Sequence record: PZ445420.1
From: a phage
Strand: one strand, 5' to 3'
DNA length: 58,073 bases
Each line of letters begins with the position of its first letter. Within the stretch, counting starts at the first letter, position 1. Below the pieces are notes generated by a model. That model was not told the origin of the DNA. It ran no database searches and was given only the letters and a program-made list of their open reading frames with translations. Below, piece by piece: positions 1,612 through 58,073 of the stretch. The position numbers were made by a program, and so were the translations under genes.

Positions 1612-3138
1612 ATGGCCATTTCTTCGGTTCATCCTAAATATTTACAGTTTAGTGCATTATGGTTGAAGATGCGGGACTGTTTTCTTGGAGCTGACCACAT
1701 CAAAGCTCAAGGCACTTTGTATCTTCCACCGACACCTGCTATGCGTTATGACGGTATGAAACCAGGCGAAGATGGCTATATCCGTTACAACGATTATAAA
1801 GAACGTGCAGTGTTCCCGGAGTATGTCGCTGATGCGGTAGTTAATCACAGTGGTATGCTTCATAGTAAGTCAGCTATCATTCAGTTACCTGCTGCAATGG
1901 AACCCCTTCGTCAATCTGCTACCAGCAAGCGCGAAGGTTTAGATCAGCTACTACGCCGCATAAACGAGCTACAGCTACGCGATGGTCGTCTTGGCCTTCT
2001 GTTGGAGCTGCCAGCGGGAAGTACCCGTGATACGTTGCCGTACATCGCAGTATACGAGGCGTTAAGTATACGAAACTGGGACGACGGTGAAGATGATCTT
2101 GGTTCACTTAACCTTAATCTAGTTGTTCTGGATGAGTCCAAAGAAGTAATGGACAAGACTTCATTTGATTGGACTTATAAAGTTCAATATAGAGTTCTTG
2201 TTCTTGGAAGCGCCAATGTAGATGAACCATCAGATAGCGGTTACGTGTATGGGCAGTACATGACAGAAGTGCTTCCTGGTGAAGATGACGAACCAGAAGA
2301 GGTGAGCTCTGACGTTGTAGTCCCTCAGTATAAAGGTACTCCGCTTGAGCAGATACCTTTCGTATTTTGTAACGCTATGGACTTAGTCCCAGAACCAGAT
2401 AAACCACCACTACTTGCATTAGCAAACAGGTGCATTTCCATTTATCAGGGTGAAGCTGATTATCGACAGGCTTTGTTTATGCAGAGCCAGGATACGCTGG
2501 TTGTTCGCGGTGGTATTACGAACAGTGACGTAGTTGATGATAAAGCTCCTGTTCGTGTTGGTGCTGGTGCTCGTATTGATGTATCTCCGGACGGTGATGC
2601 CAAGTACATTGGTACTAATTCACAAGGTTTACCGGAGCAACGTAAAGCACTTGAAGCTGACCATAAAGACGCTCAGACTCGTTCCGGGCATTTAACCAGT
2701 GCAGAAAGTGCTGCTCAAGAGTCTGGTGACGCACTGGAAACACGTCTTATCACTAAAACTGCTTCATTAGTTGGTATTGCTAAGACTGGCGCTGCTGCGT
2801 TAGAAAAAATCCTTCGTATTTGTGCTATATGGATGGGATTAAATCCAGACGAAGTTAAAGTTACACCTAACCTTGACTTCAGCAAAGCTGATATTGAAGG
2901 CCAGGAATTGGTGCAGGTGCAGACTGCCAAGAATCTTGGTGCTCCGTTATGTGCTGAGTCTATGCACAATTGGTTGCAGGATAAGGGAATGACCTCTTTG
3001 ACGTTTGAAGAGGAGATGAAACGGCTTGAGGAGGAGCGCAAAGAATACCCGTTCCTTTTACCTCAAGTTAAAAACGATCAGAACCAAATCCAGCAAACAA
3101 CTGGAGAACAGACGGGGAATGCGAATGCCGCTAAGTAA
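1612..3138 (+). CDS. portal protein
   Basis: 508-aa ORF immediately after terminase, preceded by AAGGAG; size and position typical of portal. Confidence 0.6.
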   Translation: MAISSVHPKYLQFSALWLKMRDCFLGADHIKAQGTLYLPPTPAMRYDGMKPGEDGYIRYNDYKERAVFPEYVADAVVNHSGMLHSKSAIIQLPAAMEPLRQSATSKREGLDQLLRRINELQLRDGRLGLLLELPAGSTRDTLPYIAVYEALSIRNWDDGEDDLGSLNLNLVVLDESKEVMDKTSFDWTYKVQYRVLVLGSANVDEPSDSGYVYGQYMTEVLPGEDDEPEEVSSDVVVPQYKGTPLEQIPFVFCNAMDLVPEPDKPPLLALANRCISIYQGEADYRQALFMQSQDTLVVRGGITNSDVVDDKAPVRVGAGARIDVSPDGDAKYIGTNSQGLPEQRKALEADHKDAQTRSGHLTSAESAAQESGDALETRLITKTASLVGIAKTGAAALEKILRICAIWMGLNPDEVKVTPNLDFSKADIEGQELVQVQTAKNLGAPLCAESMHNWLQDKGMTSLTFEEEMKRLEEERKEYPFLLPQVKNDQNQIQQTTGEQTGNANAAK

Positions 3139-9613: not shown

Positions 9614-10042
9614 ATGTCTTCAGAAAACAAACAAGTATCCACTGAAGTTGCAAAGAAAGCTGTTAGTGCATCTTTCCGTGACTTTAACTTGAAAAAGAAA
9701 TTAGAGAATGCTCCGCTGCTGCATTACCCGCTTGTCTTTCCAGGACAGGGCGATACAGGTCATTGGTTGAAAATTCGCAACCGTCACAGTGAAGAATTTC
9801 GTGAAGCGGATTTAAAAGCGCAGCGTCAGATCAGTGCGCTTGTCGTTGCTAATGGATCTTTTGAAAAGATTGATAAGGACATGCTCGACGATATCAATAT
9901 GCGAGCGTTCTGTAAGTTAGTTGCTTCGTGGAGCTTCGAAGAAGAATGCAGTGAAGACAACCTCATTGAATTCTTTAATAATAACCCGTTTGCGTATGAC
10001 GACATCAATCGTCTGGCAGCGCAAGATTCCCTTTTTTTCTAA
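9614..10042 (+). CDS. tail assembly chaperone (lambda G-like)
   Basis: 142-aa ORF directly upstream of tape measure; ends at a T7 run slippery site. Confidence 0.55.
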   Translation: MSSENKQVSTEVAKKAVSASFRDFNLKKKLENAPLLHYPLVFPGQGDTGHWLKIRNRHSEEFREADLKAQRQISALVVANGSFEKIDKDMLDDINMRAFCKLVASWSFEEECSEDNLIEFFNNNPFAYDDINRLAAQDSLFF

Positions 10043-54567: not shown

Positions 54568-54921
54568 ATGGGCTTGCAACGTTTTGACAATGCAGAACTC
54601 GCGTGTGAATTTGCAAAGCGCAAGTTTGCTAAAACAGGTACGCCGCGATGCGTACACGCGGCTATTGGGCAAAATGGGGCAAAGTATTGGTACGTTGGTA
54701 CAGTAGCTCAGATCAAGCGAAGATTCGCGACTACGCCCGAAATGCGCCGGCTTGGGTCCCCTACACTTGTGCGAAACAGGCAATTGGATAAAGAGGAAAT
54801 TTATCAATTTCTTAGGAATTACACTGGTAAAGAGAATAGATTTCAGGTTGCAGCGAAAGAGTTTAATATCGGTCTTTCCACTGCTTATAAAATTTATCAC
54901 ATATATGGGCGTTTAATATGA
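54568..54921 (+). CDS. hypothetical protein
   Basis: 117-aa ORF; overlaps next gene. Confidence 0.4.
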   Translation: MGLQRFDNAELACEFAKRKFAKTGTPRCVHAAIGQNGAKYWYVGTVAQIKRRFATTPEMRRLGSPTLVRNRQLDKEEIYQFLRNYTGKENRFQVAAKEFNIGLSTAYKIYHIYGRLI

Positions 54922-55412
54922 CCGCAATTGCTTATCGTAATGGTATATTGGCAGTAGATCGTCAGGTTACATGGGGTAATATTGCAACAACTACGAATAA
55001 AGTTCATACTGTTGATATCCCAGGAATTGGACTGTGCCTTGTTGCAATGTCTGGTAAACTACGTCCTGTAGATGATATTGTAGAACATCTAAAAACTACC
55101 TCGCGAGGACGTAAAGAGCCTTTCTCTGATTTAATTCCGGATTCACGTTATGGTATTGCGGTGACGCAGGAACGTGTCGTGTATCCCATCTACGGCGATG
55201 GTAAATTGGGTCTACCAGACACTAATGAATTTATTGCGGAAGGTAGCGCGTTTGAGTTCTTGATGGGTACAATGGCGGCAGGTTGCGGAGCAGAAGAGGC
55301 TGTAAGATTGGCCTGTCATTACTGCGATAGCTGTGGTCAGGGTGTTGACTTCTATGACGTAGCTTATACTCTTAAGATGGCTCAGTGTACAGACGAGGAG
55401 GAACCATTTTGA
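54918..55412 (+). CDS. HslV-like / proteasome beta-type Ntn-hydrolase peptidase homolog
   Basis: 164 aa; N-terminus MTAIAYRNGILAVDRQVTWGN...NK parallels E. coli HslV [25 protein letters not shown]...KK (Thr after Met, D-x-Q-x-T-x-GN, Lys about 30); later IAEGSA parallels IAIGSG. Confidence 0.55.
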   Translation: MTAIAYRNGILAVDRQVTWGNIATTTNKVHTVDIPGIGLCLVAMSGKLRPVDDIVEHLKTTSRGRKEPFSDLIPDSRYGIAVTQERVVYPIYGDGKLGLPDTNEFIAEGSAFEFLMGTMAAGCGAEEAVRLACHYCDSCGQGVDFYDVAYTLKMAQCTDEEEPF

Positions 55413-55600
55413 AGAAGCCTAAGACTGGTCTGTTCCTTTGTATTGGTGGACCTTTTGACGGTAAGCGTATACGCTTAACAACATCGGATCTATATCCAAG
55501 TTCCTCCGTTTTCTCTGTTCCATCCTATAAAAATGGTGAGAAGGGGAAATACGTTTGGAATGATGAAATTCGAAATAGTGTAATCTGGAGAACATCATGA
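55409..55600 (+). CDS. hypothetical protein (TTG start 7 nt after GAGGAGG; ORF track gives 55385..55600)
   Basis: about 63 aa; start overlaps stop of HslV-like gene. Confidence 0.3.
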   Translation: MKKPKTGLFLCIGGPFDGKRIRLTTSDLYPSSSVFSVPSYKNGEKGKYVWNDEIRNSVIWRTS

Positions 55601-55824
55601 GTGATCCTTCTGACGCACAATTAGCGGCTGCAAGAGTGTATATGCGCGGAGCTGCCGCTGAGATTGAGGCCTTGCCACAATTCGAGAAGCACGTACAGCA
55701 ACTTGAAGATAAATTCAAGGCTCTTAAAGACTTAGGGGATAACAAGGACGCCATAGCATTTCTTTTTGCTCTTCAATACTTTGTCATGGGGTCTGATGAG
55801 AAACTATGTTCCTTAGAAGAATAA
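55597..55824 (+). CDS. hypothetical protein
   Basis: 75-aa ORF. Confidence 0.35.
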   Translation: MSDPSDAQLAAARVYMRGAAAEIEALPQFEKHVQQLEDKFKALKDLGDNKDAIAFLFALQYFVMGSDEKLCSLEE

Positions 55825-56306
55825 TTGGTATTGTTGCACCTTGGATACCACTTGTCATAATTGTTATTCTAGCCAACTGGGCTTATGACAATGCCATAGA
55901 ATCAGCTAGAAAGGAGGGTTTCGATGCCGGTGTGTCGTACCAAAAAGAAACTCAGAAAGCGGTTGATTTCGAGGAGGAGAAACGAAGAGCGTATGAGAAA
56001 GATACTATCGAACGTCAGTACAGATCTCGTATTGAATCTTTGGTTGCCGATCTTAATAATTATCGCGCTACTAATGACAGGTTGCACAACGAAATCGCAA
56101 CCGTCCGTAAGTACCTCGGTGACGCTACCGGCCCTCAGCCCGACAGCAAGACAACCGCCCAGATCGCCCGTGTGCTCACCGAGCTGTATTCAGAAAGCGT
56201 CACAGAATACAGACAAGTGGCAGAAGAGGCTGAAAAGTATCGTATTGCCGGCGAGCAGTGCGAACTACAATATGATGCAATGCGAAATCCGCGTAAAGCA
56301 AATTGA
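55806..56306 (+). CDS. i-spanin (Rz-like)
   Basis: 166 aa; N-terminal TM segment IIGIVAPWIPLVIIVILANWAY then charged coiled-coil; o-spanin-like ORF in +1 frame. Confidence 0.6.
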   Translation: MFLRRIIGIVAPWIPLVIIVILANWAYDNAIESARKEGFDAGVSYQKETQKAVDFEEEKRRAYEKDTIERQYRSRIESLVADLNNYRATNDRLHNEIATVRKYLGDATGPQPDSKTTAQIARVLTELYSESVTEYRQVAEEAEKYRIAGEQCELQYDAMRNPRKAN

Positions 56307-56337
56307 TAAACTGCAAAGTCCTTGTCGGGTTGCGTAA
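55993..56337 (+). CDS. o-spanin (Rz1-like lipoprotein) overlapping i-spanin gene
   Basis: Alternate frame; signal-like MRKIL...LPILIIIALLMTGC with lipobox Cys (codon 56083-56085) followed by Pro/Ser-rich segment. Confidence 0.55.
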   Translation: MRKILSNVSTDLVLNLWLPILIIIALLMTGCTTKSQPSVSTSVTLPALSPTARQPPRSPVCSPSCIQKASQNTDKWQKRLKSIVLPASSANYNMMQCEIRVKQIDKLQSPCRVA

Positions 56338-56428
56338 CTAAACGTTCAATCTTAATTGCACATAATTGATTGTGTACATCTGATAATTCAACTATGCTCT
56401 ATTCGGTTTAACTGAATGGAGCTTTTTT

Positions 56429-56863
56429 ATGACTGTGCAACCACGAGGCATTCGGAATAACAATCCAGGAAATATTCGTTGGGGTGATAATTGGAAAGGT
56501 CTTGTTCCTGAAGACAAACGGACTGATCGTTCTTTCTGTCAATTTATCGATGTAAAATACGGTATTCGCGCTATTGCGCGTATTCTACTAAACTACCGCA
56601 ACCGCGAAGGAATGAAAGGTGTCGGAAATAAAGGGATTGACACTGTACGGGAGATTATTTCGCGCTGGGCTCCGCCGAATGAAAATAACACTGAAGCCTA
56701 TATTCAATCTGTGTCTAAGGCTTGTGGTGTTGGTGCAGAACAGCCGATTTCATTGACCGATGATAAAATCATGCTTGCAATCGTGAAAGCGATTATCAAA
56801 CATGAGAACGGTGTGCAACCTTATTCTGATGAAGTTTTGCTCGCGGGTATTCACATGGCATAG
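56429..56863 (+). CDS. hypothetical protein in lysis cluster (possible endolysin; no catalytic motif recognised)
   Basis: 144 aa; N-terminal RNNNPGNIR motif; between spanins and holin-like gene. Confidence 0.3.
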   Translation: MTVQPRGIRNNNPGNIRWGDNWKGLVPEDKRTDRSFCQFIDVKYGIRAIARILLNYRNREGMKGVGNKGIDTVREIISRWAPPNENNTEAYIQSVSKACGVGAEQPISLTDDKIMLAIVKAIIKHENGVQPYSDEVLLAGIHMA

Positions 56864-56876
56864 TAAGAGGTTATAA

Positions 56877-57185
56877 GTGTCGCCGAACTGGGATTGGAAT
56901 ATAGTTTTTATTCTCACTGCCATTGCGATGGTAGGGGGTTCCCTTGGCTACGCTGCAAGAACCCATGATGCTAAAGAAAGGTTCAGACTGAGCTCCTTCA
57001 TTCAAGAGGGTGCTTTTTCTGCATTCTTTGGTTTCTTGATAGGTGTAATTAACGTGGAACATGGTGTCTCACTGGGGCTCAGTGGGGCGTTCATAGGCGT
57101 GTTATCTTGGTCAGGATCAAGAACAATGCTGAAGTTTCTACGGAGAAAAACGGAAGCATGTGACCGAGAAAAGGAAAGAGGCTGA
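56877..57185 (+). CDS. holin candidate (three TM segments, basic C-terminus)
   Basis: 102 aa; non-ATG start; hydrophobic segments then RRKTEACDREKERG tail. Confidence 0.4.
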   Translation: MSPNWDWNIVFILTAIAMVGGSLGYAARTHDAKERFRLSSFIQEGAFSAFFGFLIGVINVEHGVSLGLSGAFIGVLSWSGSRTMLKFLRRKTEACDREKERG

Positions 57186-57187
57186 TT

Positions 57188-57424
57188 ATGCGTCACTTCA
57201 TCAAAGATCTTCTTATATTGTGTAAGAAACCGCGATTGCTTTTCATCTATATGATGATTGGACTTGCACAAATTGGAGTCAGTGCTATCGCCATTGATCA
57301 GATGCACAAGAGACACAGGGTAAATGTGCAACCTTTGACGCCACCTGCTTATGTGGTCAACAAGGTCGAACAAATGAGACAAGACATCCAGGAGATAATG
57401 TACATTCCTAAAACAGAAATGTAG
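57188..57424 (+). CDS. small membrane protein (antiholin or lysis accessory candidate)
   Basis: 78 aa; one TM segment LLFIYMMIGLAQIGVSAIAI. Confidence 0.3.
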   Translation: MRHFIKDLLILCKKPRLLFIYMMIGLAQIGVSAIAIDQMHKRHRVNVQPLTPPAYVVNKVEQMRQDIQEIMYIPKTEM

Positions 57425-57439
57425 ATTGGTTTATAAGTA

Positions 57440-57478
57440 AAGCCCGCTCCTTGAATTTATATCGAGCGGGCTTTTTAT
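57440..57478 (+). terminator. rho-independent terminator after lysis cluster
   Basis: Perfect stem AAGCCCGCTC/GAGCGGGCTT with 14-nt loop followed by TTTTATT. Confidence 0.6.
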
Positions 57479-57506
57479 TGACATTTACTATAACCCTTGC
57501 AATTAA
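57478..57506 (+). promoter_or_regulatory. candidate sigma70-like promoter (TTGACA -35; weak -10)
   Basis: TTGACA at 57478-57483; AATTAA/ATTAAT 17-18 nt downstream; upstream of final ORF. Confidence 0.25.
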
Positions 57507-57553
57507 TTAATCCACCGCTTATATTCGTGTCAAGAATCGACAGGAGTAACGTT

Positions 57554-58073
57554 ATGGTAAAGCCTATCCTACCTTGGACACGTAGCATTGAATACGAAGC
57601 CGATCTCACTAAAGAAGAGATGGCTATACGTGACTCTGTCGTTGAAGAATATCTGTTCGATTATGATTGGGTTAATGCGTGTAAACGTGTAGGCATGAGC
57701 TCCGCAATGGCGTTTGATTATGCTAAACGTTTTCAGGATGATAGCTATTGCCAAAGACGAATTAAAGAACTTCAACAGCAGAAAGCAAGAAGTGCTGAAC
57801 GTGACCGTAAATACGAAATAGAACAAGAGCGCCAGCGCATCATTGAAGGTCTTAGATTTGAATCCACTTATCGTGGCCCTGGATCTTCTCAAGCTGCTCG
57901 TGTTGCTGCATATAAACAATTATGTAGTATCTTTGGATTTGAAGCTCCTAAGCAACAGAAGATGGATGTTGGTGTATCTACTGGTGTTATGCTGGTTCCT
58001 ATGGTTGGTTCTATGGACGATTGGGAAAAAGTTGCTGGGGAGTCTCAGACTAAGCTGCAAGAGGATACTTTAA
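57554..58073 (+). CDS. 3'-truncated ORF running off window end; candidate terminase small subunit by position
   Basis: ATG at 57554 with AGGAG RBS; open to last base (not in ORF track for lack of stop); assumes genome wraps to terL at position 1. Confidence 0.3.
   Translation, partial: MVKPILPWTRSIEYEADLTKEEMAIRDSVVEEYLFDYDWVNACKRVGMSSAMAFDYAKRFQDDSYCQRRIKELQQQKARSAERDRKYEIEQERQRIIEGLRFESTYRGPGSSQAARVAAYKQLCSIFGFEAPKQQKMDVGVSTGVMLVPMVGSMDDWEKVAGESQTKLQEDTL

Follow-up and report, generated by a model that had tools for sequence, protein, structure and literature searches.

A holin-endolysin-spanin lysis cluster in a Nonagvirus (9g-like) phage, with a stand-alone Enc34-type catalytic domain as its predicted endolysin

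Which enzyme degrades the cell wall in a phage whose lysis genes can be located, while the endolysin among them seems to be missing? This question was raised by the first-pass annotation of sequence record PZ445420.1 (58,073 nt; this whole stretch of DNA is hereafter called the window), which placed a lysis cluster at 55806-57424 but found no recognisable endolysin in it. A related gap existed in the literature, as the lysis module of phage 9g was not identified by the authors of its 2014 description (PMC4276943). The ORF list of the window contained five co-oriented ORFs on the + strand between these positions, and their designation as a lysis cluster was borne out by family matches and synteny (Table 1). 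Because each gene has family-level matches and synteny in relatives, the five-gene arrangement far exceeds what chance would produce. The DNA of the cluster is 94-96% identical to that of 17 Nonagvirus records, including ESCO3, HdK1, JenP2, and FritzHoffmann, in which the same labels (i-spanin, o-spanin, endolysin, holin) are already annotated. The cluster and its four main parts are therefore already known, being annotated in near-identical phages, with each part resting on published work. We consider it highly probable that the genes at 55806-57424, from an E. coli siphophage of the Nonagvirus (9g-like) group, together make up a complete lysis system of holin, endolysin, and spanin.

Table 1. 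Positions of the genes and hairpins of the lysis region in the window
Feature	Position	Strand	Description and basis
i-spanin	55806..56306	+	PF10721/DUF2514, phrog_312, hydropathy; 9g orthologue curated as overlapped i-spanin
o-spanin	55993..56337	+	+1 frame of i-spanin gene; phrog_11621; lipobox; curated in 9g, annotated in FritzHoffmann
terminator-like hairpin	56396..56428	+	12-bp stem 56396-56422, then T6, directly before endolysin ATG
endolysin	56429..56863	+	stand-alone PHA02564 / Enc34-type catalytic domain, 144 aa
holin	56877..57185	+	GTG start, 102 aa, LydA-type (PF16083, holin superfamily III), phrog_785
78-aa membrane protein	57188..57424	+	phrog_16688, type II, last gene of lysis unit
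intrinsic terminator closing lysis unit	57439..57479	+	11-bp GC-rich stem, then U-tract

The 144-aa protein encoded between the spanin and holin genes occupies the position of an endolysin and carries an RNNNPGNIR motif, both of which had been pointed out before; it has no signal peptide, no TMD, and no hydropathy peak of 1.5 or above. The accompanying remark that it shows no classical catalytic signature was literally true for Pfam and NCBIfam, neither of which gave a match, and no precomputed Pfam domain was present among the 120 homologues listed. The protein matched PDB 7Q47 chain A (Enc34 ORF39) at E = 3e-31, with query residues 2-131 aligned to chain residues 4-137, and matched phrog_873, labelled 'endolysin', at 1.2e-63. 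Its AlphaFold model (pLDDT 82.7, pTM 0.79, five helices) retrieved 7Q47_B and 7Q47_A as ranks 1 and 2 in a Foldseek search of the PDB (E ~1e-10, TM 0.79, probability 1.00, 41-43% identity), the third rank lying at E = 0.6, and displayed an all-helical fold resembling the lysozyme alpha-lobe, as in 7Q47. Residues W80, Y91, and E126, which are invariant in 29 homologues, align with Trp79, Tyr95, and Glu131 of Enc34, where Glu131 is catalytic and Trp79 and Tyr95 are conserved (PMC8943055). By this alignment, Glu126 is the predicted catalytic residue, acting with Trp80 and Tyr91. The gene showed pN/pS values of 0.03-0.10 among close relatives. Rather than a new hydrolase type, the 144-aa protein is a homologue of the catalytic domain of Enc34 ORF39, and the view that the cluster contains no recognisable endolysin is not supported; close relatives of the phage already carry the label 'endolysin'.

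The first-pass annotation had also suggested that the 144-aa protein might represent a new peptidoglycan hydrolase type, a reading consistent with the empty Pfam and NCBIfam searches and with the 120 listed homologues that carry no precomputed Pfam domain. We regard this as extremely unlikely: the protein resembles, over its full length and with high significance, an endolysin domain for which a structure and activity assays exist (7Q47; PMC8943055), the family is large (4601 homologues at E <= 1e-5), and the endolysin label is already in use in PHROGs, RefSeq, and BASEL annotations. Two members of the family have been assayed: peptidoglycan degradation was demonstrated for M4Lys without its TMD (2020, PMC7143992) and for Enc34 ORF39 without its C-terminus (2022, PMC8943055), and M4Lys, from Salmonella phage BSPM4, behaved as an N-acetylglucosaminidase (PMC7143992). 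The protein looked unrecognisable because neither Pfam nor NCBIfam contains a model of its family, and we reject novelty as a conclusion from such searches, since their emptiness reflects missing models rather than a new family. The activity, bond specificity, and holin dependence that we ascribe to the 144-aa endolysin are presumptive, being transferred from relatives at ~41-43% identity.

Possession of this domain is not in itself proof that the 144-aa protein acts as an endolysin, because copies are also found within virion components, namely tape measure, ejection, and head proteins (phrog_2276, phrog_7182, phrog_992), and Gp29 of PDB 9vvp (1295 aa) carries one N-terminally. Many homologues are moreover named 'structural' or 'virion protein' in databases, including 'structural protein P5'. 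Such occurrences would fit a virion-associated wall hydrolase serving DNA entry, with lysis brought about by another, unrecognised enzyme. However, the 'structural' and 'virion' names stem from the provisional CDD label PHA02564 and not from virion proteomics (PMC7143992), and the 144-aa gene encodes a stand-alone domain between spanin and holin genes, outside the structural module. Many unrelated phages also encode stand-alone copies of the domain beside holins and spanins. In loci L006-L018 the neighbouring genes were explicitly holins and spanins, and a lipobox ORF within 1.5 kb of the domain was present on the same strand in 51 of 80 viral loci versus 9 of 80 on the opposite strand; small TM proteins near the domain (76 of 80 loci on the same strand, 65 of 80 on the opposite strand) were not discriminating. 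The search for another candidate lysin, which also bears on the earlier suggestion that the endolysin lies elsewhere in the genome, came back empty: the window holds a single copy of the PHA02564 / Enc34-type domain, none of 20 other large ORFs contains a muralytic Pfam domain, and the annotations of FritzHoffmann and JenP2 list no other muralytic gene. These results speak against an endolysin encoded elsewhere, and they make the virion-hydrolase explanation very unlikely. We therefore retain the 144-aa protein as the endolysin of the cluster.

The holin gene starts 14 nt past the endolysin stop. Its product scored above the cut-off for the PF16083 LydA holin family (34.0 bits against 28.4, residues 12-83) and matched phrog_785, 'holin', at 6.3e-28, and by these family matches the 102-aa protein is assigned as a LydA-type holin. 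It had been described as a holin-like protein with three TM segments; the holin part of that description stands, and the hydrophobic peaks at residues 9-27, 40-58, and 50-68 correspond to two or three TM segments by hydropathy. The C-terminal tail is highly charged (KFLRRKTEACDREKERG), and the gene showed pN/pS values of 0.07-0.14 among close relatives.

The i-spanin is a type II inner-membrane protein of 166 aa, with a single N-terminal TMD (residues 6-24 by hydropathy), a periplasmic domain, and a single cysteine, Cys152. It matched PF10721/DUF2514 (43.8 bits, cut-off 26; 3.7e-11) and phrog_312, 'Rz-like spanin' (9.2e-42). The o-spanin frame is open from 55924, with ATG 55993 as the likely start, and the two genes overlap by 314 nt at a frame offset of 1, the o-spanin running 31 nt past the i-spanin stop. 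The o-spanin precursor comprises 114 aa, namely a 30-aa signal (MRK...LLMTG|CTT) ending in the lipobox LMTG|C and an 84-aa mature part that contains 10.7% Pro and four further Cys; the +2 residue is Thr and not Asp. Its assignment as a lipoprotein is the outcome of a pattern and hydropathy test, and the precursor matched phrog_11621, 'Rz-like spanin', at 1e-20. These features agree with the pair as originally proposed, an i-spanin gene carrying a +1-frame, Pro-rich lipoprotein with a signal and an LLMTG|C lipobox that extends beyond the i-spanin stop, and the signal-peptide and TM analysis suggested at that time returned the 30-aa lipoprotein signal and the i-spanin TMD by the same pattern and hydropathy approach. 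The lipoprotein frame is kept open in three relatives whose endolysins are 69-78% identical (L084, L085, and L086), with a conserved LPALSPTARQP..CSPTC motif, and the o-spanin in these loci is either embedded or overlapped. The o-spanin pN/pS of ~1 says little about selection, since the gene overlaps another reading frame. The curation in the supplement to Kongari et al. 2018 lists the phage 9g pair as 'ovl' and as a 'Singleton' family, and the curated o-spanin start codon and LMTG|C lipobox are those seen here. On the evidence of these sequence features, the two genes are assigned as an overlapped two-component spanin.

The second small membrane protein reported after the holin is indeed encoded by the last ORF of the cluster. 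Its 78 residues include one TM segment (residues 18-36 by hydropathy) preceded by Lys and Arg, and its family was found only in Nonagvirus-like phages. The protein's N-terminal sequence, KPRLLFIYMMIG, is similar to KPRLFIEYLMIG, the N-terminal TMD of the Seuratvirus-type i-spanin; in three loci (L006, L007, and L091) this i-spanin is encoded in the same slot after a LydA-type holin. The resemblance was detected by BLASTP (8/12 identities, E = 6e-4), by a shuffle test (p <= 0.002), and by hhalign (probability 81%, E = 1.2e-5, 52 columns), and the L086 orthologue of the 78-aa protein cross-matched phrog_5975 at 1.1e-3; TM segments readily yield false-positive matches with one another. A profile search with the family against 1.84 billion proteins returned six cluster representatives of 76-79 aa and no spanins, and the link to the i-spanin therefore stays tentative. 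The C-terminal part showed no similarity to Seuratvirus-type spanins in shuffle tests (o-spanin p = 0.16, i-spanin p = 0.92). A sub-threshold match to Pfam Rz1 (E = 0.0022, 18 bits, cut-off 27.9) had prompted the idea of a fusion between an i-spanin N-terminus and an o-spanin C-terminus, which we rejected because the C-terminal half was not significant in these shuffle tests.

The N-terminal resemblance, the shared post-holin slot, the phrog_5975 match of the L086 orthologue, and a C-terminal part unlike either spanin could all be expected if the 78-aa gene were what is left of an i-spanin gene that was displaced and is now decaying, without present function. This reading is improbable. Frame and length of the ORF (77-79 aa) are maintained in relatives that share only 33-41% identity, and even the one subgroup with a 100-aa version, at only 14-19% identity, retains it; pN/pS was 0.16-0.54 among close relatives, and a good ribosome-binding site lies 6 nt upstream of the gene. 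The maintained ORF, the pN/pS values, and the ribosome-binding site point to a protein under selection and not to a pseudogene. We therefore treat the product as a probably functional protein, a candidate derivative of an i-spanin N-terminus and, from its position and topology, a candidate modulator of the holin or the spanin.

Two hairpins accompany these genes. The one before the endolysin (-16.4 kcal/mol, z = -7.1) holds the GGAG Shine-Dalgarno of the endolysin gene in its 3' arm, and equivalent hairpins with different inner-stem sequences were found in seven Nonagvirus-like loci. These were compared by single-sequence folds; differing loop lengths misaligned the stems in MAFFT/RNAalifold. 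No sigma-70 promoter was detected by scanning between the o-spanin stop and the hairpin. Two promoter candidates picked by eye, TTGCAC...GATAAT (19-nt spacer) and TTGATT-18-AACTAT, were weak, and no claim is made for them. The terminator behind the 78-aa gene (-18.5 kcal/mol, z = -3.5) is followed by a promoter-like site at 57497-57525 for the small terminase gene, and a 'terminator' is annotated at the equivalent position in HdK1 and SP8. It is conceivable, though rather doubtful, that lysis timing in Nonagvirus-like phages is set by the hairpin, gating transcription and/or translation of endolysin and holin, together with the 78-aa protein as a new kind of holin or spanin modulator whose N-terminal TMD may derive from a Seuratvirus-type i-spanin.

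The cluster is consistent with a conventional order of events. Judging from its family, the LydA-type holin would build up late in infection in the inner membrane, where it would open holes at a set time. The endolysin would stay in the cytoplasm until these holes give it access to the cell wall, because it has no signal, anchor, or hydrophobic segment. As an Enc34-type glycosidase, it would then cut the glycan strands via Glu126, with Trp80 and Tyr91 positioning that residue. For the protein itself we established the homology, the modelled fold, and the conserved residues; the chemistry is a likely one by analogy with M4Lys and Enc34 ORF39. The i-spanin, with its TMD in the inner membrane, and the o-spanin, a lipoprotein probably sorted to the outer membrane in view of the Thr at +2, would bridge the periplasm. 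Once the wall is gone, the complex would fuse the inner and outer membranes and thereby remove the outer membrane, a mechanism that we infer from lambda Rz/Rz1, whereas the anatomy of the pair is directly visible here.

The cluster itself is of little weight, being real but ordinary. Its analysis closes the question left by the 2014 phage 9g description, and it draws attention to a widespread endolysin domain that Pfam and NCBIfam still do not model and that often bears the wrong label of 'structural' or 'virion protein'. Given these missing models and misleading names, readers relying on sequence alone and some annotation pipelines will keep flagging the domain as unknown. Lysis timing could be affected by the 78-aa protein and by the hairpin that covers the endolysin ribosome-binding site.

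The closest counterparts of the cluster are those of the Nonagvirus phages 9g, JenP1, JenP2, JenK1, FritzHoffmann/Bas20, ESCO3, HdK1, and SE1, which have an identical five-gene set in the same order. The FritzHoffmann annotation reads i-spanin, o-spanin, endolysin, holin, and hypothetical protein. In comparison with three relatives (L001, L004, and L005), only point substitutions (4-24 per gene) were observed, and the structure of the cluster was unchanged. As in lambda Rz/Rz1 and P2 LysB/LysC, a type II inner-membrane protein is paired with a small, Pro-rich lipoprotein of the outer membrane whose gene uses the +1 frame of the same DNA, and the overlapped architecture of the pair is that of P2 LysB/LysC (PMC6139136). 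Unlike in those two systems, the i-spanin is a member of the DUF2514/phrog_312 family, and the 30-aa signal peptide of the o-spanin is unusually long. The gene order also differs from that in the lambda and P2 comparison, running spanin, endolysin, holin instead of holin, endolysin, spanin.

Phage P1 offers a second comparison. In Pfam the holin passes the cut-off of the LydA family, whereas pairwise BLASTP similarity to P1 LydA is absent (E = 1.2), the relationship being visible at profile level only. Like P1 LydB, the 78-aa protein is small, has a hydrophobic segment in its N-terminal part, and is encoded immediately behind the holin gene; the likeness is confined to position and segment, and homology to LydB was rejected, as BLASTP gave no alignment at E <= 100. 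The P1 endolysin gene (lyz) is located elsewhere in its genome, whereas the endolysin gene here lies in the same cluster and its product has no hydrophobic segment.

With Enc34 ORF39 and M4Lys, the 144-aa endolysin shares a homologous catalytic domain, the N-terminal RGIRNNNPGNI motif, and the Trp/Tyr/Glu triad. Those two enzymes carry a C-terminal TMD and lyse cells independently of a holin on over-expression, whereas the present protein ends directly after the catalytic domain; it thus falls outside the two-domain subclass (catalytic domain plus C-terminal TMD) while remaining a member of the catalytic-domain family. As it has no TMD and ends after the domain, it should need the holin, like a classical soluble endolysin, and its route to the periplasm would differ from that of Enc34 ORF39 and M4Lys.

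The lysis cluster is a classical holin-endolysin-spanin system that is already known and annotated, and all of its reading frames were confirmed at the positions given by the first-pass annotation. Our megablast search of 55597-57500 against phage records returned 17 matches, each spanning almost the entire query with 93.5-96.2% identity and each from a Nonagvirus (Queuovirinae) siphophage infecting E. coli or Salmonella, including ESCO3, HdK1, JenP1, JenP2, JenK1, FritzHoffmann, SE1, and 9g. The five lysis genes are labeled i-spanin, o-spanin, endolysin, holin, and hypothetical protein in FritzHoffmann, and the labels "Rz-like spanin," "endolysin," and "holin" are present in RefSeq JenP2. With the large terminase gene at its start and its end falling within the small terminase gene, the window represents an essentially whole genome, permuted and nearly complete. 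In relatives, the opposite strand encodes a 7-deazaguanine (archaeosine) DNA-modification cluster. The slippery motif at the end of the tail assembly chaperone ORF is the one for which a programmed -2 frameshift has been reported in phage 9g (PMC4276943). The 164-aa protein encoded upstream of the spanins is kept in relatives and gives no match in Pfam.

Coordinates and assignments of features in the window
Feature	Coordinates	Assignment or remark
Large terminase gene	1-1599	
Tail assembly chaperone ORF	9614-10042	
Slippery motif CCCTTTTTTT	10029-10038	end of chaperone ORF
164-aa protein	54918-55412	phage "peptidase HslV family" phrog_1040, 2e-35; two genes upstream of i-spanin
75-aa gene	55597-55824	phrog_19774; upstream of i-spanin
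i-spanin	55806-56306	PF10721/DUF2514 above Pfam cut-off; phrog_312 "Rz-like spanin," 9e-42
o-spanin (+1 frame)	open from 55924, ATG 55993	phrog_11621, 1e-20
Hairpin	56396-56422	T6 to 56428
144-aa endolysin		phrog_873 "endolysin," 1.2e-63
Holin	56877-57185	GTG start; PF16083 LydA holin family, 34 bits (cut-off 28.4); phrog_785, 6e-28
78-aa protein	57188-57424	phrog_16688, without assigned function
Second, classical terminator	57439-57474	3' of 78-aa gene
Small terminase gene	57555-58073	incomplete

The first-pass annotation had found no classical catalytic signature in the 144-aa protein, which holds insofar as neither Pfam nor NCBIfam gives a match and a precomputed Pfam domain is recorded for 0 of the 120 homologues listed; these empty searches explain the impression of an unrecognizable endolysin. 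However, the protein clearly matches phrog_873 and also PDB 7Q47, the Enc34 endolysin catalytic domain (E = 3e-31); the latter alignment spans residues 2-131 and takes in the RGIRNNNPGNI motif. An AlphaFold model built with 29 homologues was helical (pLDDT 82.7, pTM 0.79), and Foldseek against the PDB returned only 7Q47 chains as significant matches (E ~1e-10, TM 0.79, 41-43% identity), the next match having E = 0.6. In the Enc34 enzyme, Glu131 has been named as the catalytic residue, and Trp79 and Tyr95 show the conservation seen in GH73 and GH23 enzymes (Cernooka et al. 2022, PMC8943055); the counterparts here, E126, W80, and Y91, are all invariant in the alignment. The Enc34 domain degrades the peptidoglycan of permeabilized E. 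coli, Pseudomonas, and Hafnia (PMC8943055), and the homologous domain of M4Lys, from phage BSPM4, clears purified peptidoglycan and behaves as an N-acetylglucosaminidase in mass spectrometry (PMC7143992). The pN/pS of the endolysin gene against close relatives (0.03-0.10) indicates strong purifying selection. The cluster thus contains a recognizable endolysin of the Enc34 type; the reading without one agrees with the 2014 description of 9g, whose authors did not manage to identify the lysis module (PMC4276943), and was rendered out of date by work of 2020 and 2022.

The suggestion that the endolysin lies elsewhere also found no support, since a family HMM detected a single copy of the domain when the window was translated in all six frames, and no muralytic Pfam domain was present in 20 other large ORFs, the tape measure and tail tip proteins included. 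Neither FritzHoffmann nor JenP2 carries any other muralytic annotation. Among the 120 homologues listed, stand-alone forms of ~135-150 aa are the commonest. The same domain was also observed at the N-terminus of the 1,295-aa Gp29 (PDB 9vvp chain L; E = 7e-23, residues 3-126), indicating its use in large proteins that are presumably virion parts. A virion-associated hydrolase could be read from the database names "virion" and "structural protein," which rest on a provisional CDD label, and from the occurrence of the domain inside larger virion proteins, but this does not fit a gene that is stand-alone and wedged between the spanin and holin genes. A role in lysis is supported by the surroundings of the domain in other genomes: 51 of 80 viral contigs that encode it have a lipobox ORF no more than 1.5 kb away on the same strand, as against 9 with one on the opposite strand. 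The gene order is endolysin, LydA-type holin, i-spanin, and o-spanin in two Seuratvirus-like loci (L006, L007), and holin-like protein, endolysin, and embedded spanins in two loci of other kinds (L013, L018).

The overlapping spanin pair proposed earlier was borne out by the computed frame, lipobox, and overlap geometry. The i-spanin has one N-terminal hydrophobic segment only (residues 6-24), while the +1-frame ORF encodes a 114-aa precursor (MRK...LLMTG-CTT) with a 30-aa signal and an 84-aa mature part containing 10.7% Pro and four more Cys. Under the +2 rule of Lol sorting, Thr directly after the lipobox Cys implies that the o-spanin is not retained in the inner membrane. Its ORF shares 314 nt with the i-spanin gene and extends 31 nt beyond the i-spanin stop, which defines an "overlapped" architecture. 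A lipoprotein frame bearing LPALSPTARQP..CSPTC persists in relatives at 69-78% endolysin identity, where it is either overlapped (L085) or embedded (L084, L086); together with the phrog_11621 match, this provides evidence for the predicted o-spanin being a real gene. Phage 9g is classed as "ovl" with the same 166-aa i-spanin and 114-aa o-spanin (signal 30 aa, lipobox LMTG, mature part 84 aa; Kongari et al. 2018). A seeming 71-75-aa counterpart of the phrog_19774 gene, alike by eye only in a C-terminal motif (AFLFA/AFMFA), lies between i-spanin and endolysin in the diverged Nonagvirus-like loci L084-L090 (~2711-2941), which would constitute a local gene-order swap.

Between the spanins and the endolysin, a 12-bp hairpin followed by T6 reaches the endolysin ATG (-16.4 kcal/mol, z = -7.1), and its 3' arm holds the GGAG ribosome-binding site. 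The hairpin recurs in 7/7 Nonagvirus-like sequences (the window and six diverged loci, L084-L090 ~2965-3000) at -12.8 to -17.4 kcal/mol (z = -4.7 to -7.3), with varying inner-stem sequences and a compensatory GCCCC/GGGGC pair in one. L010 has a different hairpin over the ribosome-binding site and start codon, and Seuratvirus-like loci have none. With the downstream terminator, the hairpin of the window brackets the endolysin, holin, and 78-aa genes between two terminator-like structures, leaving the spanin genes upstream of the first; no convincing promoter was found between the spanins and this hairpin. Its candidate roles are transcription termination, translation block, or both.

The holin-like protein and second small membrane protein were likewise upheld, the former by its Pfam and PHROG matches and two or three hydrophobic segments with a charged tail, the latter by an N-terminal hydrophobic segment. 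The 78-aa protein has 34 homologues, each at least 81% identical, in a word-indexed search, and six cluster representatives (76-79 aa) in an exhaustive profile search of 1.84 billion proteins. The slot is also filled in diverged Nonagvirus-like contigs: the product is 77-79 aa, 33-41% identical, and matches phrog_16688 in L085, L086, and L089; it is 100 aa and only 14-19% identical in L084, L087, and L090, where position and topology link it to the family, with no PHROG match in L084. The pN/pS is 0.16-0.54, and we conclude that the 77-79-aa form is a real gene under selection. Its N-terminus (KPRLLFIYMMIG) resembles that of the Seuratvirus-type i-spanin (KPRLFIEYLMIG; phrog_5975 and phrog_89), which occupies the same post-holin slot in L006 (3800-4276), L007, and L091 (3815-4345). 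The similarity comprises 8/12 identities (BLASTP E = 6e-4; shuffle test p ≤ 0.002), an hhalign probability that rose from 68% (close relatives only) to 81% on inclusion of diverged members, and a phrog_5975 cross-match from the L086 orthologue, while the C-terminal half matches neither Seuratvirus-type spanin in the shuffle test. This is suggestive of a shared origin, although short transmembrane matches are unreliable, and the 78-aa gene may be spanin-derived.

Compared with known systems, the 78-aa protein parallels P1 LydB, an antagonist encoded directly after lydA, in position and N-terminal hydrophobic segment only, with no sequence similarity. Enc34 ORF39 and M4Lys possess a C-terminal transmembrane domain and cause holin-free lysis when over-expressed (PMC8943055, PMC7143992), whereas the 144-aa protein stops after the catalytic domain without a hydrophobic segment, which points to probable release by the classical holin-dependent route.
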